A DNA stretch of 64,000 nt, taken from NCBI GenBank assembly GCA_037137555.1, contig JBAXKA010000001.1, forward strand, positions 1,874 through 65,873. Reading direction: 5' to 3'. The notes below the pieces were generated by a model. It did not search any database. It was given only the letters and a program-made list of their open reading frames with translations, and was not told the DNA's origin. Position 1 is the first letter of the stretch. Each line of letters opens with the position of its first letter. Both the position numbers and the translations under genes were made by a program. This stretch comes from Candidatus Moraniibacteriota bacterium (lineage in GTDB: Bacteria > Patescibacteriota > Minisyncoccia > Moranbacterales > UBA2206). Shown piece by piece: positions 16,119 to 38,967 of this stretch.

Positions 16119-17123
16119 TTAATCCGCTATTAAATTCTTAATAATTTTCACCATAATTTCTTTTTCTTTTGGATCACTTTCTGCGACAAGAAGCGCGAGC
16201 GCCGTGAGAGCATTATCATTAATCTTTCTCTCACCGCTCATACGATAGAGATAATCCGACTTGTCTAGAAAATATACGAACAAAAATGCACCTGAGCGTT
16301 TATTGCCATCAGAAAATGGATGGTCTTTGATCGTGAAATATAAGAGATGTGCCGCTCGATCTTCGATTGTTGGATAGAGTTCTTTTTTGCCAAAAGTTTG
16401 ATAAAGTCCCTTGACAATTCCCTCAAAACTCCCGCCTCTTGCTTGCCCAAATAAATCGCTAGCTTCTTTTTTATTAACTAGCTCTTTTTTCAATTCCAAA
16501 ATTACTTGCAAGCATTTTTTATAGGATAGCACAAATTTAGTTTTTCCGCCCCTCATTTCTTTCAAACTCCCTTTGTCATATTGTTCGAGCATTGTCAATG
16601 TTTTAGCATAAGCAGAAAGTAAATTCAAAATCTCACCAGATTGTCCTGCCAGCAATTCTTTTTTTGACTTTTTTTGCAAAAAATCAATGGTCATTTTTAG
16701 TTCATTGAATTTTTCTTGTGCTTCCATGAGGCGTTTTTCATTAATGACATAGCCTTGTAGCAAATATTTTCTTAAAACATTTGTCGCCCATTTTCTAAAA
16801 TGAATAGCTCTTGCAGAATTTGTCCTGTAGCCCACCGCTAAGATAACATCCAAACCATAAAACATCACTGGTTTATCAGAATTTGCAATGTGCAAAAAAT
16901 GCACATTACTTTTTTCGTCTATTTCTTTGTCGGAAAAAATTGCTTTAATGTGCTTAGCAATGACAGATCTTTCTTTTCCAAACAAAGTTGCAATTTCTCT
17001 TTGTCTAAGCCAGATAGCCTCCTCTTTAAATTGCACTTCCAACTCAACCTCATTTTTCGTGGTTTTATAGATAATAATTTCACCTCTATTGAATTCGTCT
17101 TTTTTTATTGTAGTTTTTTTCAT
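16119..17123 (-). CDS. RhuM-family N-terminal domain fused to a Fic/Doc (Fido) domain protein
   Basis: N-terminus GEIIIYKTTKNEVELEVQFKEEAIWLRQREIATLFGKERSVIAKHIKAIF (RhuM-like). C-terminal Fic motif HPFSDGNKRSGAFL, i.e. HPFx[DE]GN[G>K]R. Confidence 0.7.
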   Translation of the reverse strand: MKKTTIKKDEFNRGEIIIYKTTKNEVELEVQFKEEAIWLRQREIATLFGKERSVIAKHIKAIFSDKEIDEKSNVHFLHIANSDKPVMFYGLDVILAVGYRTNSARAIHFRKWATNVLRKYLLQGYVINEKRLMEAQEKFNELKMTIDFLQKKSKKELLAGQSGEILNLLSAYAKTLTMLEQYDKGSLKEMRGGKTKFVLSYKKCLQVILELKKELVNKKEASDLFGQARGGSFEGIVKGLYQTFGKKELYPTIEDRAAHLLYFTIKDHPFSDGNKRSGAFLFVYFLDKSDYLYRMSGERKINDNALTALALLVAESDPKEKEIMVKIIKNLIAD

Positions 17124-17143: not shown

Positions 17144-18256
17144 CTAATTATTTGAACTAGTCTGCTTAGAAATATTTAAAAGCACACCGATTCCCGCCAT
17201 CAGAAAAATAAGAGATGTTCCGCCATAGCTAATAAACGGTAATGGAATTCCTGTGAGTGGAATAATTCCAGAAATGGCTGAAATATTAATGAGGGCTTGA
17301 AAAGTTATCCAGCAAGTAATGCCCACTGCGGTAAGTTGCGAAAAACGATCTGGTGCATTTTTGGCAATCCGAAAACCGATCATGGCAAGAGCTAAAAATA
17401 AAAAAACTAAAATTAAAACTCCGATCAGTCCCAATTCTTCTCCGATAATGGCAAAAATAGAATCGCCGACTGGTTCTGGCAAATAATTAAATTTTTGCAT
17501 GCTATGCCCCAATCCTACTCCAAAAATTCCACCTGAACCAATAGCCAGAAGTGCTTGATTAATTTGATAGCCAATTCCTCGCGGATCTAATTCGGGATGC
17601 AAAAAAACTAAAAATCGATCCATACGATAAGATTCAAATTTAATTAGCAGTGCAAGTGCCGCGAAACCAGAACCAGCAATCATAAACATATGGGAAAGTC
17701 TGGCACCGGAAATAAAAAAAATCGACATAGCAATAAAAATAATCACACCAAGCGTTCCCATGTCCGGTTGTTTTTCCAAAAGAAAACTAACCACACCAAC
17801 CACTGCTAAAAATGGCAACAAACCTTCATAGAAATCCTTCACTTTTTCCGCGCGACTTTCCAGCCAAGCTGACAGATAAATAATAATTGCTAATTTTAGC
17901 ATTTCTGAGGGCTGAAAAGAAAACGGACCAAGTTGCAACCAACGACTCGCACCATAAACTTTGGAGCCGACACCTGGTACAAAAACTAAAATAAGCAAAA
18001 AAATACTCAGAATAAAAAAAGGAAAAGCAATTTTTCTCCAAAAATTATAATTGATTTTTTGAGTTACATATAAAATAAATAATCCTGGCAAAACTCCATA
18101 AAATAATTGATGCTTAAAAAAATAATAAGAATCACCAAAGCGACTACGCGAATAAGCGATGCCAGCCGAAGCAATCATTGCCAAACCAAAAATAACTAAC
18201 AGTGAAGTTATAAATAATAAGTTTTTATTTATTTCATGTTCTTTATATTTTGTCAT
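17144..18256 (-). CDS. SEDS-family peptidoglycan glycosyltransferase (RodA/FtsW)
   Basis: Ten TM helices and the conserved SEDS motifs (PSE, GHSMQKFNYLPEPVGDSIFAIIGEELG). Confidence 0.85.
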   Translation of the reverse strand: MTKYKEHEINKNLLFITSLLVIFGLAMIASAGIAYSRSRFGDSYYFFKHQLFYGVLPGLFILYVTQKINYNFWRKIAFPFFILSIFLLILVFVPGVGSKVYGASRWLQLGPFSFQPSEMLKLAIIIYLSAWLESRAEKVKDFYEGLLPFLAVVGVVSFLLEKQPDMGTLGVIIFIAMSIFFISGARLSHMFMIAGSGFAALALLIKFESYRMDRFLVFLHPELDPRGIGYQINQALLAIGSGGIFGVGLGHSMQKFNYLPEPVGDSIFAIIGEELGLIGVLILVFLFLALAMIGFRIAKNAPDRFSQLTAVGITCWITFQALINISAISGIIPLTGIPLPFISYGGTSLIFLMAGIGVLLNISKQTSSNN

Positions 18257-18905
18257 TTTTTTCTCGCCATTTTTTTATTTCATTATGATTTCCGCTCATA
18301 AGCACTGCTGGCACTGGCCAATTATTAAATTCTTGCGGTTTGCTATATTGTGGATGTTCTTTGTAGTTTTTAATTTTATGGGATTCATTTTTAGCGCTTT
18401 CAGCATTTCCCAATACTCCAGGCAAAAGTCGTGCAACAGAATCAACAATAATTAACGCGGGAATTTCTCCGCCCGTAAGCACATAATCTCCAATAGAAAT
18501 TTCCTCATCAGCAATATTTTTTGCCACTCGCTCATCTACGCCTTCATAGCGTCCACAAATCAAAACCAAATTAGTATATTTTGCCAACCGCTCTGCTGTT
18601 CTTTGTGTATATTTTTTGCCCTTAGCTGAAAAAAGAATTATTCGTGTATTAGCTTTATTTTGTTTTTTAGTAATTATTTTTTTTATTTTCTCAACACAAG
18701 CATAAATCGGCTGAACTTGAAGCACCATTCCTGCTCCTCCGCCATATGGCGTATCATCAACCTTACCATTTTTATCGTCCGTATAATCTCGCAAATTATG
18801 CGTAAAAATTTCAATAAATTTATTTTTTTGAGCACGCCCAATAATTGATTCTTGCAAATAAGAATTTAAAATTTGAGGAAAAATTGTGATGATGTCGAAA
18901 CGCAT
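18243..18905 (-). CDS. trmD: tRNA (guanine37-N1)-methyltransferase TrmD
   Basis: MRFDIITIFPQIL start, SPOUT knot motifs (LICGRYEGVDERV, YVLTGGEIPALIIVDSVARLLPGVLGN). Confidence 0.9.
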   Translation of the reverse strand: MRFDIITIFPQILNSYLQESIIGRAQKNKFIEIFTHNLRDYTDDKNGKVDDTPYGGGAGMVLQVQPIYACVEKIKKIITKKQNKANTRIILFSAKGKKYTQRTAERLAKYTNLVLICGRYEGVDERVAKNIADEEISIGDYVLTGGEIPALIIVDSVARLLPGVLGNAESAKNESHKIKNYKEHPQYSKPQEFNNWPVPAVLMSGNHNEIKKWREKNDKI

Positions 18906-18925
18906 ATTTTTTGGTGATTATTTTC
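18875..18925. repeat. 51-bp direct repeat, copy 1 (contains the authentic trmD start codon and first 11 codons plus 7 bp upstream)
   Basis: GAGGAAAAATTGTGATGATGTCGAAACGCATATTTTTTGGTGATTATTTTC is identical to 21690-21740. Confidence 0.9.
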
Positions 18926-20000
18926 CAGATTTAGTTCGATTACAATTCTTACAAAGCATCTGGCAATTTTTTGAAATTGTTTTTCCGCCTTCGTGCCAAG
19001 GTGTGATATGATCAGCTTCCATTTCTTCTGTTTCAAAATGTTCTTTGCATTTTATGCAAATGCCTTTTTGTTTTTCATAAATTTCCCTTTTTTGTTTATC
19101 TGCAAAAGCACGGATATTTAAATATTTTTCATTTCTTGTCAGAACATAAGGATAAATTCCAGATTTTTTTGTTACATCTTCATCTTGCATTAGTTTTGTG
19201 ATTTCTTCTTCTAATTTTTCAAAATCAACTTCTTGATCTTTGAATCGATTGTATAAATTCCCAAAAGAAACGCCTTTCATTTCTTTGCGATAATTGGGAA
19301 AAACAGCTTTAATCCAATTTATTATGCTTTGAAAATAGAGCCACAACTCATTGGCGTTTGGCTTGTGCTGATTTTCTGCCATATACTGCTCAATGTTTTC
19401 ATCACTAATCCACGAAATAGCCGTTTCTAAATATTCTTGACGAATACTAGAACCATTTAAATAATCACTTCCAATACCATAGGCAGGGCAACCAGATTTA
19501 CTAAAATATCTTTTGGCATCAGTTAACCAAGTGCCAGTATAAATTGCATTTCGCAATTCTTGATCAGTTAATTTTTCACCAGCGATATTAATTGTTTTAA
19601 ACCAATCTAGTTTTTCCTTATCATTTCCCTCGCAAAAATAAACCATAAGTTTATAATTCAAAATTTGCTCTTGCTCTATGTCGGTAAGATTGTGAAAAGA
19701 TAAGTTATTTAGAAAAAAATTGCCTACCACATATTCGCAAATACTAATTGTGCGTTGTTGTCCGTCCAAAACTTCAAAAGTTCCATCTTCATTTTTCACC
19801 CAATACATTACATTTAATGGAAAACTTTTTTGCACAGTTTCAATCACTAAATCTCTTTGCTTATCCTTATACACAAATTCTCTTTGATATTTTGGACGGA
19901 TATTTAGTTTTCCACTATAGCCAACCACACCTTCTTCATCATTATTAGCATACGCATCAACAATTTCTCTGATTGCGATTTCTTGTAGTTTAATTTTCAT
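18918..20000 (-). CDS. DUF262 (ParB/GmrSD N-terminal-like, DGQQR motif) domain fused to a C-terminal HNH endonuclease domain
   Basis: LDGQQRTISI motif. C-terminus CIKCKEHFETEEMEADHITPWHEGGKTISKNCQMLCKNCNRTKSGK is an HNH/zinc-finger nuclease motif. Confidence 0.75.
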   Translation of the reverse strand: MKIKLQEIAIREIVDAYANNDEEGVVGYSGKLNIRPKYQREFVYKDKQRDLVIETVQKSFPLNVMYWVKNEDGTFEVLDGQQRTISICEYVVGNFFLNNLSFHNLTDIEQEQILNYKLMVYFCEGNDKEKLDWFKTINIAGEKLTDQELRNAIYTGTWLTDAKRYFSKSGCPAYGIGSDYLNGSSIRQEYLETAISWISDENIEQYMAENQHKPNANELWLYFQSIINWIKAVFPNYRKEMKGVSFGNLYNRFKDQEVDFEKLEEEITKLMQDEDVTKKSGIYPYVLTRNEKYLNIRAFADKQKREIYEKQKGICIKCKEHFETEEMEADHITPWHEGGKTISKNCQMLCKNCNRTKSGK

Positions 20001-20011
20001 AAATAGTATAA

Positions 20012-20299
20012 TTAAAAGTTATTTTTTCTAGCCAATTCTGGTAATTTTTCAAATTGATTATGTATCAACGCTTCTTTTTTTTCTCTTCTCCAACCTTGCA
20101 CTTGCTTTTCTCGATAAAATGCTTCATCAATTCTAGCATATTCTTCAAAATAAACTAATTTAACTGGCAATCTCTTTTTTGTGTGATTTGCACCTTTTCC
20201 TGATTGATGTTGAGCCAAACGAAATTCCAAATCTTTTGTACTTCCAGTGTAGTAACTACCATCAGCACATTCTAAAATATACATGTATCCTTTACTCAT
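20012..20299 (-). CDS. GIY-YIG nuclease family protein (short, about 95 aa)
   Basis: [31 protein letters not shown]...QGWRREKK. Start set at MSKGYMYIL (20299). The longer 151-aa ORF reads through the repeat array and is an artefact. Confidence 0.75.
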
Positions 20300-20640
20300 A
20301 CCCGTTGGTTGAGCTTGTCGAAACCAATACTTACTAATTCGCAGGTGTTGCCTTCGATAAGCATAGACATTGTGTGTTGCCTTCGACGGGTGTGTTGCCT
20401 TCGACGGGCTCAGGCAACGGGAACGCATCCGTTGGTTGAGCTTGTCGAAACCAACTGTCGAAACCAATCACCTACTCGTTGGTTGAGCTTGTCGAAACCA
20501 ACACTCACACCAATTCGCTGAGTGTTGCCTTCGATAAACTCAGGCAACGGAGAAGGGTGTTGCCTTCGACGGGCTCAGGCAACGGGAACGCATTGTTGGT
20601 TGAGCTTGTCGAAACCAACTATCGAAACCAACACCCACCT
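20300..20640. repeat. array of about 10 hairpin repeat units of two related types in alternating orientation
   Basis: Type A is CGTTGGTTGAGCTTGTCGAAACCAAC (4 near-perfect copies). Type B is GTGTTGCCTTCGACGGGCTCAGGCAACGG (2 full copies plus 3 partial or variant copies). Both share the architecture stem-TCGAC-nn-GCTC-stem, read on opposite strands. Confidence 0.8.
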
Positions 20641-21601
20641 AAATTTTCTTGTTTTTAATTAAAATTCTAAAATATGGACACTTTCCATTTATGCTTAAAT
20701 CTTTTTCATCATCACCTTTGCGAAATTTTATAATCTCAAACTGCTCCGGATTATATTTATCTAAAAAAGTAATCGGCACGCCCATCGTTCCGGCATAATC
20801 CATTGGGATATCTTTTGTCTTATTAATATTTATTGCATCATAATTATCATATTTTGGATAATCTTCTGGATTATATTGTTTGTATAAAATTAAATCTTCG
20901 TGTCGTTTATTTATTTCTAAGTTAGTGAACCAGACAACACCAGAAACTCTAATCATTCCATCCTTATGATCTCCAGCAGTTGCATAATCTTCATAATGCG
21001 TATTAATAAAATGTGCCGCCCCACCATTAAACCCATAGCCTAGCCATAATTTATCATCCTTGATCAATTTAAATATTTCTTTATATGTTATAGCATTTTG
21101 ATGTCCAATAATAATAAACTTCTTATCATACTCAACCAATTGTGCCACATATTCCCGAAACAAAGAAAAAGGCGGATTAGTCACCACGATATCAGCTTGC
21201 TTTAAAAGTTCAATACATTCAGGACTTCTGAAATCACCATTCTTTTTTAAATGCTTGATACCAATTTCTGAAATATCTGGCACTCGATTTTCATTTTTAT
21301 CGCCAATGTATTCCAAATAAATCGCTTTTTCAGAATTATTTTGACTGAACAAATCGACACTTTGATTTTTATAACAAGTTGTGATTAATTTTTTGAGTCC
21401 TAGAAATTCAAAATTATAGGAAAAATAATGAAAAAAATTGCTCACTCTTGGATCATCGCAATTGCAAAAAACTGTTTTGCCCTTGAAATGATTTTTATAA
21501 TGAGCTAACTCTCTAGTGATATCCGCAAGTTGTGTATAAAACTCATCATTTTTGGCTTTGTTGGCTTTATGTAAATTTTGATTGGAAGATTTTCCTGCCA
21601 T
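20639..21601 (-). CDS. N6-adenine DNA methyltransferase, EcoRI-methylase-like family
   Basis: NPPF motif IV (IVVTNPPFSLFREY). N-terminus DEFYTQLADITRELAHYKNHFKGKTVFCNCDDP and C-terminal PMDYAGTMGVPITFLDKYNPEQFEI recall the M.EcoRI family, recalled from memory rather than searched. Confidence 0.6.
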   Translation of the reverse strand: MAGKSSNQNLHKANKAKNDEFYTQLADITRELAHYKNHFKGKTVFCNCDDPRVSNFFHYFSYNFEFLGLKKLITTCYKNQSVDLFSQNNSEKAIYLEYIGDKNENRVPDISEIGIKHLKKNGDFRSPECIELLKQADIVVTNPPFSLFREYVAQLVEYDKKFIIIGHQNAITYKEIFKLIKDDKLWLGYGFNGGAAHFINTHYEDYATAGDHKDGMIRVSGVVWFTNLEINKRHEDLILYKQYNPEDYPKYDNYDAININKTKDIPMDYAGTMGVPITFLDKYNPEQFEIIKFRKGDDEKDLSINGKCPYFRILIKNKKI

Positions 21602-21689
21602 AAAATTGAATAAATTGCTTAATTATTTTCAGCATATCTTTTTTTTATTTTGTGCCGTATTTCTATTATACCAAAACAAATCAAATCTC

Positions 21690-21740
21690 GAGGAAAAATT
21701 GTGATGATGTCGAAACGCATATTTTTTGGTGATTATTTTC
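21690..21740. repeat. 51-bp direct repeat, copy 2 (a dead trmD 5' fragment: ATG then 10 matching codons, then divergence)
   Basis: Identical to 18875-18925. Overlaps the stop codon of the downstream ATPase gene. Confidence 0.9.
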
Positions 21741-23034
21741 TTAAAAACTCCTCAAAAAAGTTTTTTATTTCAATCTTTCCTCCTTCTACCTTTATCTCTT
21801 CCGAATAACCCATCGTAATAAGCTGAGCTTTTTTAAGTTTAAATTTTTTCATCGCTTCTTTCAATCCAGCGATTTCTCTCTCTCTGTTTCCCTCATTCAA
21901 CTCCCAACAAGCATTTATTGCTTTTTCAATTTTAACGCCTTTTCGCAAAAGAAAATCTATTTCATTTTTTCCTTTCCAATAAAAAATATCTTCGCCTTTT
22001 CGACGATATTCTAGAAAAACCATATTTTCAAAAATACGCCCCAAATTTTCACTGAATCGAAAAGAAACTGCTCGATAAATTCCCAAATCAATAACATACA
22101 CTTTCTCCGGATTAGCTTTTTGCTTCAAATAAGAATAGTCAAATAAATTTATTCCTTGAGTTAAAAAAACATCCTGAGCGTAAGTAAAAAATTTATTCGC
22201 CGTAGGTTGAGAAATAGCCAGAGTTTTTTCCGCCCGATAACCGGAAAAGCTAGTAGCAATACTAGTTACTAGGTTTATATAATACTCCTTAATCTTTTTA
22301 GTATCTCGCACATCATATCTCTGCACAATATCTTTTTCGATAATAGAAGAATAATAATCTTTTAAGAGTTGTAATTTATCTTGAACTTTCGAACTCAGAA
22401 CCACGCGTGGAAAACCACCATACCGCAAATATTCCATAAACTGATTTTTCAATGCCGGCAGTTCCCTTCCGCCAGAAAAATTAATTAGCTTTTGTTTATT
22501 TTTAAAAAGCAGAAACTCCCAAAAACTCAAAGGAAATATTTCATTAGTATAAATTCTTCCCGTAAGTGCTGTACCATATTCCTTGGAAAGTAACTTGGAG
22601 GACGAACCAGTTATATAGAATTTTATTCGTTCTTCCCGATCATGGAGACCACGAACAAATTTTTCCCATCCGTCTATATACTGAACTTCATCAAGCACAA
22701 TTAAAATTTTTCCTTCGGGACTGAATTTTTCCAAATAAGCATCCAGCAATTGAGCGAGAAACTCCAATTTCAGTTGTGGTGCGAAGGCTGGCTCTTCAAA
22801 ATTGATATAGAGAGTATTCTCCTTGGGAAGTCCCTGCTCAACAGCTTTTTTTAAAACCTGAAGTAAAATAGTAGATTTTCCTGATCGCCTAATTCCAGAA
22901 ACTATTGAAACTTCTTTGATATTCTTTTGTCGCAACAATTCTTTCACATAGCCAACCCGCTCTATGCCTGTTTCACGCACACCACCCCACAAATTCCAAT
23001 AAGCCAGAATTTCAATGATTTGCACTTTATTCAT
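21733..23034 (-). CDS. AAA ATPase (AAA_14/DUF4143-like, 'ATP-binding protein' family), copy 1 of 3
   Basis: Walker A GIRRSGKST, Walker B ILIVLDEVQY. Paralogous to 36581-37891 and, more distantly, 35226-36365. Confidence 0.75.
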   Translation of the reverse strand: MNKVQIIEILAYWNLWGGVRETGIERVGYVKELLRQKNIKEVSIVSGIRRSGKSTILLQVLKKAVEQGLPKENTLYINFEEPAFAPQLKLEFLAQLLDAYLEKFSPEGKILIVLDEVQYIDGWEKFVRGLHDREERIKFYITGSSSKLLSKEYGTALTGRIYTNEIFPLSFWEFLLFKNKQKLINFSGGRELPALKNQFMEYLRYGGFPRVVLSSKVQDKLQLLKDYYSSIIEKDIVQRYDVRDTKKIKEYYINLVTSIATSFSGYRAEKTLAISQPTANKFFTYAQDVFLTQGINLFDYSYLKQKANPEKVYVIDLGIYRAVSFRFSENLGRIFENMVFLEYRRKGEDIFYWKGKNEIDFLLRKGVKIEKAINACWELNEGNREREIAGLKEAMKKFKLKKAQLITMGYSEEIKVEGGKIEIKNFFEEFLRK

Positions 23035-23167
23035 ACATAAGTATAGTTTAGCAATTTATATCAAAATACTAAAGTATATTTTAGTATTTGTCAAGCGATT
23101 TAATTCGCCCTTTATTTTCAAAAACAACATTTATTCATGCTACATATTCATTATACCAAAACAAATC

Positions 23168-23198
23168 AAAAAAGGCTAACTTTCGTCAGCCTTTTTTA
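23168..23198 (-). terminator. rho-independent terminator after the KH-domain gene
   Basis: Hairpin GGCTGACGAAAGTTAGCC on the minus strand, flanked by A and T runs. Confidence 0.5.
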
Positions 23199-23219: not shown

Positions 23220-23570
23220 TTAGACAATATCACCAACAACATCATCAATACTTTTTCGCACTTCTTCTCTTGGCTCTCGTGGTTCGCGATCTTCTCTTGG
23301 TTTTCTTTCAGATCCTTCTGGTTCGTTAATTTTAAGATTGACTCTGGCATTATTTCTAGCACCAATCACACGAAGCAAAGTTCGCAAAGCTTTCGCAGTT
23401 GCTCCTTCACGACCAATTATCATTCCCATATCCTCAGGATTGACATCGAGTGTAATAAGCACACCCATCTCATCGATTTTTCTTTCAACCTTAACATCAT
23501 CCGGATTATTTACAACTTGTTTTACAACATACTCAACAAACTCTTTGTCAGTCACTTGAATTGTAGTCAT
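23220..23570 (-). CDS. KH-domain RNA-binding protein (KhpA/YlqC-like), with a charged Pro/Arg/Glu-rich tail
   Basis: VVKQVVNNPDDVKVERKIDEMGVLITLDVNPEDMGMIIGREGATAKALRTLL (GxxG KH core). The opposite-strand 196-aa ORF is low-complexity and was rejected. Confidence 0.65.
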   Translation of the reverse strand: MTTIQVTDKEFVEYVVKQVVNNPDDVKVERKIDEMGVLITLDVNPEDMGMIIGREGATAKALRTLLRVIGARNNARVNLKINEPEGSERKPREDREPREPREEVRKSIDDVVGDIV

Positions 23571-34243: not shown

Positions 34244-34675
34244 TTATTTTTTAGTTACAAATTCTAAAATATAATGGCAATACTGATTATAGTCACGGAG
34301 ACAATCGCCGATTGAATGATACACTTTTTCTTTATCCACATTATCATATTCATGAACTAACACATTTCTCGTTCCCGCACTTTTGGCAATTTCTTTGGCA
34401 AAATCATAAGGATAAACTTTTAATTCAGCTAAGATTAAAAAAGTCTCCGTATAGGCCAATGGAGTTCTGGATGTCTTTTCTGCCAATTCATAAACAATGT
34501 GCTGATTAATATCAATCGCACGATTAACTATTCTTTCTAGAAATCTCTCGACTGCCGCCAATTTCACTGGGTCACTAGCCACTTCATCAAATGAATATCT
34601 GGCAAACGGCAATAGATTTTGCAATTCGTCTTCAATTAGTGTTATTTTTCTTTGAATAAAAGTTTTATTTATCAT
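34244..34675 (-). CDS. hepT: HepT-like HEPN toxin (DUF86), pair 1
   Basis: HEPN Rx4HxY motif RNVLVHEY. Start overlaps or abuts the MntA gene. Confidence 0.75.
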   Translation of the reverse strand: MINKTFIQRKITLIEDELQNLLPFARYSFDEVASDPVKLAAVERFLERIVNRAIDINQHIVYELAEKTSRTPLAYTETFLILAELKVYPYDFAKEIAKSAGTRNVLVHEYDNVDKEKVYHSIGDCLRDYNQYCHYILEFVTKK

Positions 34676-34681
34676 AATGAG

Positions 34682-35110
34682 TTAGGCTTGAAGTGCTTGA
34701 TTTATTATCATATATTTCCTTTGAGACATTTTCGCTTCAAAATCAAAAAGTGGTTTCGCATCAACAAAATAGCGATAGGATCGCGCACGCAATTCATCAA
34801 ATTCATTGCGCTCGCCATAAAGCATTTTTCCTTGGAATAAGACCTCGTACGCCAATAATGGATTGGCCTTGTTCAAATTCGTCAAATCAATTAAGCCATC
34901 TGAAACATTCAATACGCGAGATAAAAAAGATAACACGGCACTATAGTTATCCATGCTTTCCCCAATATTTTTCTCTTCTGAAGTTAAGATAGCAATATCA
35001 TAATCACTATTTTCTTGCGCTTTTCCGCTGGCACGCGAACCAAAAAGAATGACCATTTTTATGCCCAATTCTGATGCCTCTTTCTTAAATTTTTTATTAT
35101 CAATTTCCAT
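34682..35110 (-). CDS. mntA: MntA-like minimal nucleotidyltransferase antitoxin, pair 1
   Basis: GSxxxG...DxD motif LFGSRASGKAQENSDYDIAI. Start set at MEIDNKK (35110). The longer ORF begins in the 5' UTR. Confidence 0.75.
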   Translation of the reverse strand: MEIDNKKFKKEASELGIKMVILFGSRASGKAQENSDYDIAILTSEEKNIGESMDNYSAVLSFLSRVLNVSDGLIDLTNLNKANPLLAYEVLFQGKMLYGERNEFDELRARSYRYFVDAKPLFDFEAKMSQRKYMIINQALQA

Positions 35111-35225
35111 ATTTCCAATATACCATATATCCAAAAAAAACACAAAAACAAAAAAGAGCAAGCAAATCACCCAATCTTCTTGTTTTATTTTTCTTCTTTG
35201 ATTGTCGGTGGTGCATTACCAATCA

Positions 35226-36365
35226 TTAAGCCACAAAATCATGATAATTATCGCGATTTATTATCGTAAATTCTGATTGCGGATAGCTCTCCATAAATTT
35301 CTTCGGATAAGGCGCATGTGTTTTTTTCCACTTGAATTCATAGGCATGATATTTTCCACCACTATCTTCGATATAATCAATCTCACTACCAGTATAGGCT
35401 CGCCAAAAATAACTCGTCGCTATTACTTCTTGATATTTTATTTTCTTCATCCTTTCGACTACTAATAAATTCTCAAACAGTGCGCCTTGATCATTGCGAT
35501 CATTCATTGCATTAAGGTTATCAATGAGAATATTTCTAATACCAAGATCATAAAAATATATTTTATCCTTTTTGGTGATTTCTTTGCGTGGATTTTTTGA
35601 CAAGGCTGACAGGCGAAAAATAACAAAAGACTTTTCCAATAAATCAACATACCTGTTCACCGTCTCACTGCTCAGCTCCAGACTATCGGCCAATTCATTA
35701 ATAGAAACTTCCTGTCCGATCTGAAAGGCCAGCAACTTCAGCAATTTATATATTTTATCAGATTTCTTAATCGATTCCAGTTCCAAAATATCCTTATAGA
35801 GATACGAGGTAGCAATTTCTTCTAAAAGTTTCTTTTTATTTTTCAAATTCTCCATAGTGAAAACTTCCGGATATGCTCCATGAATTAAAAAATTATCGAG
35901 ATAGCCACCGAGTTCAAATTCATTATGATAACTGGATAATTCCAAAAATGATAATGGATAGAGAGTATATGTCCAAACTCTGCCAGTTAGTGGTTCTTTT
36001 ATTTTATTTGCCAATTCAAAGGAAGATGAGCCAGTCACAATTATTTTCAAATCCTTCATTCCATCAGCCAAAATTTTCAAATTAATTCCAATATTTTCAA
36101 TCCTTTGCGCCTCATCAATAAATAACAATTCGTAACCGCTTACAAGTGATTTCAGTCTAGAAAGATCACGACTACTCAACACATCGTGGTATTTTTTCTC
36201 ATCAGCATTGATTTTTAGGGTTTTCAAATTAAGCCTGCTAATTATTTGATTCACTAGCGTCGTTTTTCCCACCTGCCTGGCGCCATAAACAATCACAATT
36301 TTATTGCTTTGAGTTAATTTGCCTATTATTGGCTCCAAAATGGCTCTTTCAATTATTTCAACCAT
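35226..36365 (-). CDS. AAA ATPase (AAA_14/DUF4143-like), copy 2 of 3
   Basis: Walker A GARQVGKTT, Walker B LLFIDEAQ. Confidence 0.75.
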   Translation of the reverse strand: MVEIIERAILEPIIGKLTQSNKIVIVYGARQVGKTTLVNQIISRLNLKTLKINADEKKYHDVLSSRDLSRLKSLVSGYELLFIDEAQRIENIGINLKILADGMKDLKIIVTGSSSFELANKIKEPLTGRVWTYTLYPLSFLELSSYHNEFELGGYLDNFLIHGAYPEVFTMENLKNKKKLLEEIATSYLYKDILELESIKKSDKIYKLLKLLAFQIGQEVSINELADSLELSSETVNRYVDLLEKSFVIFRLSALSKNPRKEITKKDKIYFYDLGIRNILIDNLNAMNDRNDQGALFENLLVVERMKKIKYQEVIATSYFWRAYTGSEIDYIEDSGGKYHAYEFKWKKTHAPYPKKFMESYPQSEFTIINRDNYHDFVA

Positions 36366-36416
36366 AAATATTAGCGTTAATTTTTAAGGCTAATATTAAA
36401 TATTAGCGTTAATATG

Positions 36417-36445
36417 ATTATATTACCTAACCGCTTTTCTGTCAA
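36417..36445 (-). promoter_or_regulatory. near-consensus sigma70 promoter (TTGACA, 17 nt, TATAAT) for ATPase copy 2
   Basis: Minus strand reads TTGACAGAAAAGCGGTTAGGTAATATAAT. Downstream in the 5' UTR there are two direct AATATTAGCGTTAAT copies and a 17-bp palindrome CTAATATTAAATATTAG at 36366-36414. Confidence 0.6.
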
Positions 36446-36580
36446 ATTTTCGCTAAAAATGGATGAATTATAGCCTGATTTTTTAGCACAAAAAAAGAAT
36501 CCACGCCGAGGCGGGATTCTTTTTTTTATTTTTTACTGAATTTGATAAAAGGTACTTGACCCCTTTTTTCTTTATCACTT

Positions 36581-37891
36581 TTATTGCAGTAACCAACGCC
36601 AAACAGGCATAACAACGATCTCTCCACTTTCCATTCCAACTGAATCTTCCTCGCTTTCAGTTAGAATTAATGCTTTTTTCAGACCTAGCTCGCGCATAGC
36701 CGATACCGTGGCATTAATTTCTCGCTCGCGAGTTTCAAATTTTTCTAGCGATACGCAAACTTGAATTATGGCTTCTATTTTCTGTTTTTTTCTGATCAAA
36801 AAATCAACTTCGAGATTATTTTTTGTTTTATAATAATATACTTCTTCCTCTTTTTTTAATAAGTGCAAAAAAACCAAGTTTTCCAACAATTTTCCACGAT
36901 CTTCATTAAAGCTAAAACTTATAGCATTACGCAATCCCAAATCTGACGCATACACTTTGCGCGGATTAACAGCCTGCTCCTTCAAAGAATAGGCAAATTT
37001 TGGCAGGAAATAAAGCAGGAAAGGCGTTGTCAAATATTCGGAAAAACGCTCGACTGTTGAAAGGGGGATTTTTAAAAAATCCTTCACTTTATTGTAAGAC
37101 ATTAGAGCGGAGATGTTAGTCAAATAAAATTTTGTCAAAATCCTCAATTTCTCAGATTGCCTTATCTTAAACCGACTCAGCAAATCTCTGTTTATAATGT
37201 CCTCGAAATAATTGCGCAGAATCGTGTTTTTATCCTCTGCTGTTTTCAAAAAAACTGTTTTTGGCATACCGCCAAATTTCAAATATTCCCCAAATAGCTC
37301 CTTTATTTTTGCCTTTTGCCTTACAATACTAAGTTGATCAGAAATTTCGATTTTATTAAAAATCAAAAATTCCGCAAAAGTCAACGGATAGATTTTTAAA
37401 GTCAGTTGCCGTCCGGTCAAAACCGTGCTCAACTCAGAATTGAGTAAATGAGAATTGCTTCCGGATACAAAAATCGACGCCACTTTTCTTTCATGTAAAC
37501 TATTCACGAATTTTTCCCAGCCAGGCACATTTTGAATTTCATCCAACAGAATGAGCGGCTTTCCTCCCGGTTTCAAATTTTGCAAATATGTTTCATATAT
37601 CTCACCCAAAAGCTCAGGGGAATATTCGCCCAAGAATCTCGCATCCTCAAAATTGACATACAAAATATCTTGAGGCAAGAATTTTTTTTCTTCCAGCATT
37701 TTTTTGGCAAACTGCAACATCAAAGTTGATTTTCCGCTTCTTCTGATTCCAATAAGCGACACTACTAAGCCAATATTAAAATATCGCTCCATTTTATCAA
37801 CATATTCCTTTCTTTCTATGCCAGTTTCGATCTTTTTTTGCCAAAAATTCCAATCATTGAGAATTTCCAACAACTTTTCATTATTTATCAT
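36581..37891 (-). CDS. AAA ATPase (AAA_14/DUF4143-like), copy 3 of 3
   Basis: Walker A GIRRSGKST, Walker B LILLDEIQ. N-terminus resembles copy 1. Confidence 0.75.
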   Translation of the reverse strand: MINNEKLLEILNDWNFWQKKIETGIERKEYVDKMERYFNIGLVVSLIGIRRSGKSTLMLQFAKKMLEEKKFLPQDILYVNFEDARFLGEYSPELLGEIYETYLQNLKPGGKPLILLDEIQNVPGWEKFVNSLHERKVASIFVSGSNSHLLNSELSTVLTGRQLTLKIYPLTFAEFLIFNKIEISDQLSIVRQKAKIKELFGEYLKFGGMPKTVFLKTAEDKNTILRNYFEDIINRDLLSRFKIRQSEKLRILTKFYLTNISALMSYNKVKDFLKIPLSTVERFSEYLTTPFLLYFLPKFAYSLKEQAVNPRKVYASDLGLRNAISFSFNEDRGKLLENLVFLHLLKKEEEVYYYKTKNNLEVDFLIRKKQKIEAIIQVCVSLEKFETREREINATVSAMRELGLKKALILTESEEDSVGMESGEIVVMPVWRWLLQ

Positions 37892-37929
37892 ATATGTGGG
37901 TTAAGATTAGTCTTTTTTAAACTATATGC

Positions 37930-37957
37930 AGTATAACAAATTCTGTGCTCTTGTCAA
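37930..37957 (-). promoter_or_regulatory. sigma70-like promoter (TTGACA, 16 nt, TATACT) for ATPase copy 3
   Basis: Shares the core TGTCAAATTTTC(C/G)CTAAAAATGG with the promoter at 36417-36445. Confidence 0.5.
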
Positions 37958-38034
37958 ATTTTCCCTAAAAATGGCTTCAATAAAGCAAACAAAAAAGAGC
38001 AAGCATTTCACTCACTCTTTTTGTTTTCTTTTTT

Positions 38035-38457
38035 TTATTTTGACTTTAAAAATTCATCAATATAGATTAAATATTCCTCAAATTGCGAAAGTCCATCCTT
38101 CAGATCTTGAATCATTTTTTTATTATCCACTTTATCATATTTATGCACGACCATATTTCTCAATTTAACTGCCTCCGCAATTTTATAGGAAAAATCGACT
38201 GGTATCACTCCCTTCTCGCCAAGAATAATAAAAGTATTGCTATATGTGTCAGGAATACCAAAATTTTCTTCCACAATGATATGTGAGTTTATATCCAGCA
38301 TAGTATCAACAATCAACTGAAAATTTCTTTCAAAAAATCTTAAGTTTTTAACATCACGCAATATATCAAAAACATCCAGATCTTTAATAGACTCAATTTC
38401 GCCAAGATAATTGACGATGGAACCCATTTTAGATCTTATTAAATCATTATTGAGCAT
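38035..38457 (-). CDS. hepT: HepT-like HEPN toxin (DUF86), pair 2
   Basis: Rx4HxY motif RNMVVHKY. Paralogue of 34244-34675. Confidence 0.75.
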   Translation of the reverse strand: MLNNDLIRSKMGSIVNYLGEIESIKDLDVFDILRDVKNLRFFERNFQLIVDTMLDINSHIIVEENFGIPDTYSNTFIILGEKGVIPVDFSYKIAEAVKLRNMVVHKYDKVDNKKMIQDLKDGLSQFEEYLIYIDEFLKSK

Positions 38458-38857
38458 AAACTTTTTTTAATTTTTTAATTTTATTGGTGATTATACTATC
38501 TCGTATTTCAAAAAGTCGTTTAGCTTCAAAATACTCTTGCATAGTATTGACAAAAAAATATTCATATTCATTTTTAGCGTCATACAAAACTTTATTATTT
38601 TTAACAATTTCGTATTGCAACAATGGTCCGACATTTTTCAAATCAACAACATCGGCTTCTTTCTTGACTAATTGAGATAACTCAATGCTTAGACTGTCTT
38701 TTTCCAAATAATCCAACCCTCTCTCGCCAATAAAACCAAAATCGAAATCACTCATCGGGTGAGTTTTTCCACTAACTTGTGAACCAAAAAGAAGCAATAG
38801 CTTTAGGCCGTATTTTTGAGCAAGTTCTTTAATTTTCTTTTCATCAATTTTTTCCAT
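38447..38857 (-). CDS. mntA: MntA-like nucleotidyltransferase antitoxin, pair 2
   Basis: LFGSQVSGKTHPMSDFDFG. Start set at MEKIDEKK (38857). The 5' UTR is nearly identical to that of pair 1. Confidence 0.75.
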   Translation of the reverse strand: MEKIDEKKIKELAQKYGLKLLLLFGSQVSGKTHPMSDFDFGFIGERGLDYLEKDSLSIELSQLVKKEADVVDLKNVGPLLQYEIVKNNKVLYDAKNEYEYFFVNTMQEYFEAKRLFEIRDSIITNKIKKLKKVYAQ

Positions 38858-38967
38858 ATTTCCAATATACCATATATCCAAAAAAAACACAAAAACAAAA
38901 ACCAGCACAAAAAAGAAGGGAGGGATTACTCGAAAAAAAAGTAGCTGTAAAAAAAACTAGCAAAAGC

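Follow-up and report, generated by a model that had tools for sequence, protein, structure and literature searches.

The DNA analyzed here, called the window in the following, is a stretch of 64,000 nucleotides (nt) from a Candidatus Moraniibacteriota bacterium (assembly GCA_037137555.1, contig JBAXKA010000001.1, positions 1,874 to 65,873), which belongs to the candidate phyla radiation (CPR). We looked at the interval between its khpA and trmD genes, which contains an ATPase gene, a predicted type II restriction–modification (R-M) pair, a GIY-YIG gene and a hairpin-repeat array, together with two copies of a 51-bp segment that includes the start of trmD. A first-pass annotation, made from the window sequence, had described the DNA between these copies as an accessory island inserted by a foreign element into trmD. 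Its gene calls (trmD, DUF262-HNH, GIY-YIG, EcoRI-family methylase and AAA ATPase) were confirmed by Pfam/PADLOC profile matches and the hairpin array is present; all of the genes are on the minus strand, so that the cargo is co-oriented with trmD, as it had stated. The features are listed below in the direction of transcription; related contigs and loci are designated by L numbers.

23220..23570, minus strand: khpA (KH-domain protein; PF13083, E 3e-22), the conserved left neighbour of trmD in relatives
23167..23198, minus strand: khpA intrinsic terminator, with a 14-pair stem and a T-run; the hairpin is kept in sister-species empty sites
23150..23170, minus strand: A1, first copy of a 21-bp predicted trmD promoter with extended −10 TGGTATAAT; exact repeat of A2, invariant in all strains
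23095..23149, minus strand: 55 nt between A1 and the ATPase cassette, with no match outside the locus
21741..23094, minus strand: ATPase cassette, AAA_14/DUF4143 (Pfam; PADLOC), with its own putative promoter/operator (23094-23035) and its gene (23034-21733), whose last 8 nt are in B2
21690..21740, minus strand: B2, dead copy of the 51-mer, which opens a 33-amino acid (aa) open reading frame (ORF); 53-bp identity in L010
21686..21689, minus strand: junction filler that joins the trmD fragment to the promoter copy, GAGA here and AAGA in L010; homology stops at the ends of the repeats
21665..21685, minus strand: A2, second promoter copy, predicted driver of the R-M module and trmD; carries strain-specific single-nucleotide polymorphisms (SNPs)
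21643..21664, minus strand: 22 nt, AGAAATACGGCACAAAATAAAA, after A2; they also follow the single promoter in ATPase-less strains
20639..21601, minus strand: M, EcoRI-family N6-adenine DNA methyltransferase (PF13651, E 3e-138; PADLOC MTase_II, E 4e-133)
20300..20638, minus strand: GC-rich hairpin-repeat array of ~340 nt, located between M and R; its fold is one long palindrome, imperfect, with z = -9
20012..20299, minus strand: 95-aa GIY-YIG protein, catalytic domain only (PF01541, E 7e-18)
18918..20000, minus strand: R, DUF262(GmrSD_N)-HNH restriction endonuclease (PADLOC REase_II over its full length, E 6e-142), whose last 8 nt are in B1
18875..18925, minus strand: B1, live 51-mer at the R/trmD junction; a diverged version is found in L059
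18243..18905, minus strand: trmD, intact (PF01746, E 7e-57), with full-length alignment to relatives

Exactly two copies of the 51-mer, GAGGAAAAATTGTGATGATGTCGAAACGCATATTTTTTGGTGATTATTTTC, are present in the window, one at 18875-18925 and one at 21690-21740, and they do not differ at any position, as first reported. No third match was found in the window at 3 or fewer mismatches, and 100 shuffles gave 0 expected. Read on the minus strand, it is composed of 8 nt of a gene end (GA AAA TAA), a 12-nt spacer (TCACCAAAAAAT) and the first 31 nt of trmD (ATG CGT TTC GAC ATC ATC ACA ATT TTT CCT C). Two details of the earlier description need correction. The repeat contains 20 nt upstream of the ATG and 31 coding nt (10 codons and 1 nt), not 7 bp and 11 codons, and the stop codons of R and the ATPase gene, which had been placed exactly on its last bases, lie 6-8 nt inside it. 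The B1 copy (18925-18875) runs on into the intact 220-aa TrmD. The B2 copy (21740-21690) reads MRFDIITIFP, diverges after that and ends as a 33-aa ORF, which agrees with its description as a dead 5' fragment; this ORF was also predicted by gene callers on L003, L005 and L008, and an exact-protein look-up of it returned no record. In L010 the identity between B1 and B2 reaches 53 bp, with the junction CCTC-AAGA-TTTGATTTG, which suggests that the trmD-derived part was originally 53 bp and that the G at 21689 of the window is a later SNP. An apparent extension of 66 nt past the repeat, at 91%, was rejected as chance AT-rich similarity, its score being inside the shuffle range.

One question regarding a perfect repeat of this kind is whether the duplication is an artefact or a chimera of the assembly, and the MEGAHIT contigs of the source sample do break inside the island, at the hairpin/GIY-YIG region. 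However, L005, a JGI contig from another sample and a different strain (~98.7% identical), spans both 51-mers, and both are perfect. The single junctions are also spanned by independent assemblies: the ENA contigs L001, L002 and L003 and the metagenome-assembled genome (MAG) contig L010 from NCBI contain one 51-mer copy each, with its flanks. The Logan contigs L012, L006 and L007 end 30 nt inside the 51-mer, which we infer to be the effect that a true 51-bp repeat is expected to have on a k=31 graph. Based on these contigs the duplication is real, as had been assumed, and the probability of an artefact is close to nil.

A second direct repeat is interleaved with the first. It is a 21-bp sequence, TTTGATTTGTTTTGGTATAAT, found at 23150-23170 (A1) and at 21665-21685 (A2), and its 20-mer core has 2 matches in the window against 0.05 expected. 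A1 follows the khpA terminator and A2 sits 4 nt past the dead trmD start, which gives the order A1, ATPase, B2, GAGA, A2, M-hairpins-GIY-R, B1, trmD. These are two complete promoter–cargo–trmD-start modules in tandem. From its sequence and its position, the 21-mer is predicted to be the native trmD promoter, with TGnTATAAT as its extended -10 motif; it lies 9-10 nt before the trmD ATG in those sister species that have an empty site, described below, so that trmD would be nearly leaderless. A2 is found with the SNP versions GATATAAT in L003/L005 and GGTACAAT in L010. No homology was found beyond the repeats, neither after A1/A2 nor after B1/B2, with scores in the shuffle range, and the 55 nt that follow A1 share no homology with L054-L058 or with the DNA downstream of A2 and were seen only at this locus among the fetched loci. 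The first-pass annotation had regarded the DNA between the 51-mers as a foreign element with a target-site duplication. That this DNA is accessory is supported, yet it begins with a second native trmD promoter, which argues for a copy of the same locus and not for a foreign element.

The module next to the live trmD carries M and R. Two of the closest R homologues (85-86% identity) are located 2-4 nt downstream of an EcoRI-family M gene, and these tight operons, together with the PADLOC matches, indicate that the 'island' is a type II R-M pair. M and R are thus predicted to be separate genes of one such pair, which co-occur as an operon in homologues and are separated in the window by the 640-bp hairpin/GIY-YIG unit. 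A search of PDB with R gave a generic HNH motif match only and did not identify the enzyme, and exact-protein look-ups of TrmD and R found matches in the source sample only. Among the R homologues listed, most have 360 aa and 106 of 120 end in SGK, and the nucleotide homology of R to L060/L061 ends exactly at the stop codon (18918). The SGK ending and the homology through the stop codon indicate that the first 8 nt of B1 are the native end of R. One homologous M-R operon is found on contigs with a rolling-circle Rep. In this group (L061, 167-1213; R homologue of 85% identity) the contigs are small and carry the Rep (PF23343) and a 78-aa protein upstream of M, which is possibly a controller protein; by their gene content, such contigs suggest that this R-M family is carried by plasmids or phage-like vehicles.

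The module upstream of it carries the ATPase, which matches the candidate defence family PDC-S01 (PADLOC, E 3e-106). The nucleotide homology of this cassette to relatives in unrelated contexts extends from 23094 to 21743 and ends 3 nt before B2. The cassette has a promoter of its own (TTGACA-17-TAGTAT). Its promoter segment (23035-23094) overlaps a 26-nt perfect palindrome (ACAAATACTAAAATATACTTTAGTAT region), a possible operator, which is retained in relatives with unrelated gene neighbourhoods. At its C-terminus the ATPase of the window has ...FLRK, compared with ...FLGK in its closest homologues. With R and the ATPase both natively ending in G-K-stop, an 8-9-nt microhomology may have been available for the exchange of cassettes.

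The third component is the GIY-YIG gene with its hairpin array. The array is made of two hairpin types, which are mutual reverse complements with compensatory changes in the stems; strains with 98-99% identity differ in the number of units, and assemblies made from short reads are interrupted at the array. It has no family match in Rfam. Dispersed repetitive extragenic palindromic (REP) elements were considered and rejected, as these hairpins are found in the window only at 20300-20640. Homologues of the GIY-YIG protein, at 77-86% identity, are spread across phyla (CPR, Bacteroidota and others), and an exact-protein look-up of the 95-aa protein itself returned no record. In a type I R-M operon (L068-L075, for example L068 4045-4465), a homologue of 86% identity separates hsdM from hsdS; hairpins of the same motif family follow on its 3' side, and that unit is flanked by a ~19-bp imperfect direct repeat, GGGTTrAAwTATGAGTAAA, which spans the hsdS start codon. 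The GIY-YIG gene and the hairpin array together look like an independent selfish unit. In the literature on GIY-YIG proteins with palindromic repeats, the 12 best-ranked of 300 matches deal mainly with organellar introns or other mobile elements, and none of these 12 with a bacterial unit of this type.

The presence of two nuclease genes inside a unit flanked by direct repeats raises the option that the element moved by itself, either by GIY-YIG or HNH homing or by site-specific integration followed by loss of the integrase, with the 51-mers as attL and attR; both had been offered as the carrier in the first-pass annotation. The same genes do not fit this role. The HNH protein matches a type II restriction enzyme model over its full length and is paired with M in homologous operons, which makes it an R subunit. 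The GIY-YIG protein, with 95 aa, has the catalytic domain only and lacks a recognition domain of its own, and the hairpin-associated unit also occurs inside a type I R-M operon. A homing element is recognised by a nuclease with its own DNA-recognition domain and by the same ends at every insertion, and by sequence neither applies here. An integrative element of the site-specific kind encodes an integrase or recombinase and has att sites; no recombinase domain was found in the cargo proteins or in the called genes within ~10 kb on either side, and no phage genes, so the earlier statement that integrase and transposase are lacking stands. In addition, the 51-mer is found nowhere else in the window, the 2.8-kb unit was seen at no other locus, and in other species the slot is filled with unrelated cargo without repeats. 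We therefore regard a self-mobile element as very unlikely.

In order to see what the locus looks like elsewhere, we compared it with its relatives. Those found with TrmD belong to Candidatus Moraniibacteriota and allied CPR genomes. TrmD scans of metagenome and genome collections gave species-level relatives only (81% identity or less) and no conspecific strains; only the look-ups made with KhpA, M and GIY-YIG gave strain variants. The khpA–trmD interval, which is 4.3 kb in the window, is only 82-84 bp in L019, L023 and L043 (TrmD 76-78% identical) and up to 120 bp with L024 and L025 included. In L019, L023 and L043 this empty site consists of khpA, the terminator hairpin, TTGATTTATTTTGCTATAAT or a close variant, 9-10 nt and the trmD ATG, and it holds only the trmD half of the 51-mer, directly adjoining the promoter. 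These sites have no ATPase, which indicates that the ATPase itself is cargo. An empty site in which the ATPase gene abuts trmD with a single 51-mer had been predicted and was not found among the relatives listed, and the insertion point, previously placed inside the trmD coding sequence, lies between the trmD promoter and its ATG.

It is well known that defence genes cluster in hotspots, and other species of this genus have different cargo at the same place. In L022 (5967-10001) a Type IIG R-M fusion and a Bro-N/PDC-S13 protein are located exactly between the promoter and the ATG. In L021 (8422-10001) and L018 (1-1382) a 410-aa secreted protein lies between khpA and the terminator, and in L020 (1-733) a 202-aa protein lies just upstream of the terminator, the contig ending before khpA. 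None of these loci has a duplication. Such varied cargo in sister species indicates that the khpA–trmD locus is a recurrent landing site.

Closer relatives give information on the relative age of the two modules. L011, L015 and L017 (~98% identical) have a single promoter, after which come AGAAACACGGCACAAAATAAAA, the same 22 nt as downstream of A2 in the window, and a hairpin repeat. They have no ATPase, no dead trmD start and, at its expected place, no M. L011 may be either the product of a precise loss or the state before insertion. A more distant lineage, L059 (84-89% identical), has the hairpins, GIY-YIG, an R with a ~490-bp internal deletion, a 30-nt spacer and trmD. Its R remnant of 157 aa (401-874, corresponding to 20000-18918 of the window) shows that the R-M system can decay. 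Its 51-mer region has 2 substitutions among the 31 nt of trmD, a spacer that differs by an indel of 18 nt, and altered last codons of R. The presence of the R/trmD junction in this lineage, with a diverged repeat, suggests that the junction is older than the dead copy, which is identical in 51 of 51 positions. B2, being 51/51 identical to the B1 of its own lineage, would then be the younger copy, unless gene conversion kept the two alike. This points to the ATPase module as the newcomer. The strain-specific SNPs of A2, with A1 invariant, and the low SNP density of the cargo (0.1-0.8%, no higher than the 1.4-2.3% of trmD and ftsW) indicate that the stacked arrangement predates the divergence of the strains.

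The explanation closest to the first-pass annotation is that the ancestral order was promoter, ATPase, 51-mer, trmD, and that the R-M unit was inserted with a 51-bp long target duplication or was integrated as a circle in the 51-mer. Such insertions are described for R-M systems in bacterial genomes, with repeats of more than 30 bp that often span start or stop codons and without mobility genes (Nobusato 2000 Gene 259:99; Furuta 2010 NAR 38:2428, PMC2853133), and among the published cases there are target-duplication repeats of 46-47 bp that overlap the 3' ends of genes (PMC2853133). Four of the five points by which this class is recognised are found here: R and M both lie between the repeats, which are perfect; the unit of 2,815 bp (repeat start to start) is below 20 kb; the repeat of 51 bp (53 in L010) exceeds 30 bp and spans a start codon as published repeats do; and there are no mobile-element genes, integrase and transposase included. 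The target gene is also intact. Regarding the fifth point, an empty site with one repeat copy, the sister-species sites hold the trmD half only and no ATPase–trmD site is among the matches listed. The ending of the closest ATPase homologues in G-K-stop also supports such an insertion, since the 8 nt at the left end of the repeat could come from the ATPase gene itself. Several observations do not agree with it. The insert would have to start with the exact host trmD promoter and with the 22 nt that follow this promoter in ATPase-less strains. The R/trmD junction is already present in L059 with a diverged repeat. No single-copy ATPase–trmD site was seen, and the sister-species empty sites are without the ATPase. 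The ATPase homology stops before the repeat, and the R homology passes through its stop codon. Thus, the part of the earlier proposal that concerns a long direct repeat across the start codon with an intact trmD kept fits the R-M pattern, and its direction, R-M into an ATPase–trmD junction, is not supported; an insertion of this kind has a minor but real probability.

A mechanism that fits both interleaved repeats is that a duplicative rearrangement, without any recombinase, stacked an ATPase allele of the locus upstream of a resident R-M allele. We give this about an even chance. In this CPR genus, accessory and defence genes would have landed repeatedly in one slot, the gap between the promoter and the ATG of trmD, with a second slot just upstream, between khpA and its terminator. 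In a first step, an R-M pair (M, then the DUF262-HNH R) would have occupied the promoter–ATG slot, as another R-M system did in L022, the stop codon of R in this resident allele ending 12 nt before the trmD ATG. The GIY-YIG/hairpin unit would then have split M from R. In a third step, an ATPase allele of the same slot would have met the resident R-M allele, with its left boundary after TATAAT and its right boundary at GAAAATAA-spacer-ATG. Finally, the ATPase allele would have been joined upstream by one illegitimate crossover, from trmD codon 11-12 to the base before the promoter, leaving the junction ...CCTCAA-GA-TTTGATTTG...; an equivalent route would be a circularised allele that integrates by recombination within the shared sequence. 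The scars of such an event would be the interleaved direct repeats of 21 bp and 51-53 bp and the dead 10-codon trmD start. The likely agent is host recombination after DNA uptake, with no recombinase encoded by the element. As one consequence, trmD would be transcribed from A2 through the R-M module. As another, recombination between A1 and A2 or between B1 and B2 could remove either cassette precisely and leave trmD intact and driven by a promoter.

Another option that produces the same junction (trmD codon 11-12 to promoter) and the same interleaved repeats is that the promoter–R-M–trmD-start module of ~2.9 kb was first duplicated in tandem by illegitimate recombination and that the ATPase cassette later took the place of its upstream R-M part. 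The cited literature documents cases in which R-M units flanked by repeats were amplified. Yet this needs one extra step, and the replacement must match both boundaries of the R-M cargo, after TATAAT and at GAAAATAA; such coincident boundaries are easier to explain if the ATPase was already in the same slot in the donor. No genome with two R-M copies was seen, and we consider this route unlikely.

Some points weigh against the stacking of two alleles as well. None of the contigs listed carries promoter, ATPase, 51-mer and full trmD, or an ATPase-less promoter–M...R–trmD, from end to end. The L011-type contigs stop in the hairpins, before the trmD side, and are also without M, and L011 shares sub-lineage SNPs with the ATPase-bearing L010 and L012, so it could be a secondary deletion. 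The identity of B1 and B2 could come from an old duplication followed by gene conversion, and the L059 contig starts at the hairpins. A repeat of 51 bp is also too short to date the event statistically, as ~0.5-1 difference is expected at strain-level divergence. Lastly, since the closest ATPase homologues also end in G-K-stop, the 8 nt at the left end of the repeat may belong to either cargo gene.

Why would both alleles have been kept? Chromosomal R-M systems are reported to resist allelic replacement through post-segregational killing, with survivors that show rearrangement or multiplication (PMC3874152, citing Handa 2001, Sadykov 2003). The locus of the window is similar in that the incoming allele and the resident R-M are kept together and none is replaced, and the same logic of post-segregational killing would select for the retention of both. 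In contrast, the cited cases, as presented in that source, are laboratory experiments in E. coli and Bacillus, and here the link is drawn from the anatomy of the locus.

The stacking of alleles also places the locus with respect to other known systems. It differs from the R-M insertions with long target duplication in the interleaved promoter repeat, by which a whole promoter-to-start module is duplicated with its own cargo in each copy; in the cargo beside the live gene, which appears to be older than the duplication; in that no empty site with a single full 51-mer was found among the relatives; and in its host, a CPR bacterium, which is not among the taxa named in the available text of Furuta 2010. 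With the interleaved promoter repeat and the proposed order of events, it would be a variant form of these insertions and neither an ordinary case of them nor a new element. Like the E. coli hsd or immigration control region and the allelic substitution of R-M systems (Furuta 2010), it has conserved flanks (khpA and trmD) and defence cargo that differs by strain and species; unlike hsd-type loci, its slot lies between a promoter and a start codon only 9-10 nt apart, and two alleles are found in tandem. It resembles integron cassette arrays in having co-oriented cassettes stacked downstream of a promoter, but there is no integrase and there are no attC-like sites, and the repeats are pieces of the host trmD control region. 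What is seen here is a known repeat-flanked R-M rearrangement in a new form, with two alleles of one hotspot stacked, and no new kind of mobile element.

How repeat-flanked defence cassettes can arise without a recombinase is shown in a readable natural record from a CPR genome, which includes true empty sites, different cargo in the same slot, a strain without one module, an older lineage with a decaying R and both junctions of the duplicative event. Direct repeats need not be the target duplication of an inserting element and can be the scar of two hotspot alleles joined in tandem, and an essential gene can receive cargo between itself and its promoter and still function. The case would extend the R-M long-target-duplication class to CPR bacteria; it overturns nothing.

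A broader hypothesis is that the trmD promoter–start segment is a recombinase-free platform for gene capture in tiny CPR genomes, in which cassettes bring or acquire the promoter and the first codons. We consider it quite unlikely. If it were true, host homologous recombination could stack and exchange cassettes and excise them precisely while trmD is never silenced. Such a system would be integron-like, built only from the control region of an essential gene, and R-M addiction would favour stacking over replacement.

One further case of a long direct repeat around accessory genes was noted in the window. In the region 34244-38908 a 70-nt direct repeat (35091-35160 and 38838-38907), 89% identical and ~95% in its upstream part, contains the promoter and first codons of two paralogous nucleotidyltransferase/HEPN-like (MNT/HEPN) gene pairs. 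The paralogous nucleotidyltransferases, at 34-39 kb, are ~45% identical by eye. The two repeats bracket two AAA_14/DUF4143-like ATPase genes (35226-36365 and 36581-37891), whose families were read from the translations. A constant promoter and start with variable defence cargo, as seen at 35-39 kb, is a hint of a principle that may apply more widely.

Other genes near the locus are also of the defence type. A second R-M pair, an N6_Mtase followed by a PabI-family restriction enzyme (PF09522), is found ~8 kb upstream of khpA (L002 1-1771, about 31.3-33.0 kb of the window); L011 does not have this pair and shows another arrangement at that place, with a HepT-like gene. On the other side, two genes follow trmD:

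17144..18256, minus strand: ftsW, downstream of trmD in all relatives
16119..17123, minus strand: RhuM/Fic

The RhuM/Fic protein matches the candidate defence family PDC-S23 (E 2e-116), so that the trmD–ftsW pair has defence-type genes on both sides.

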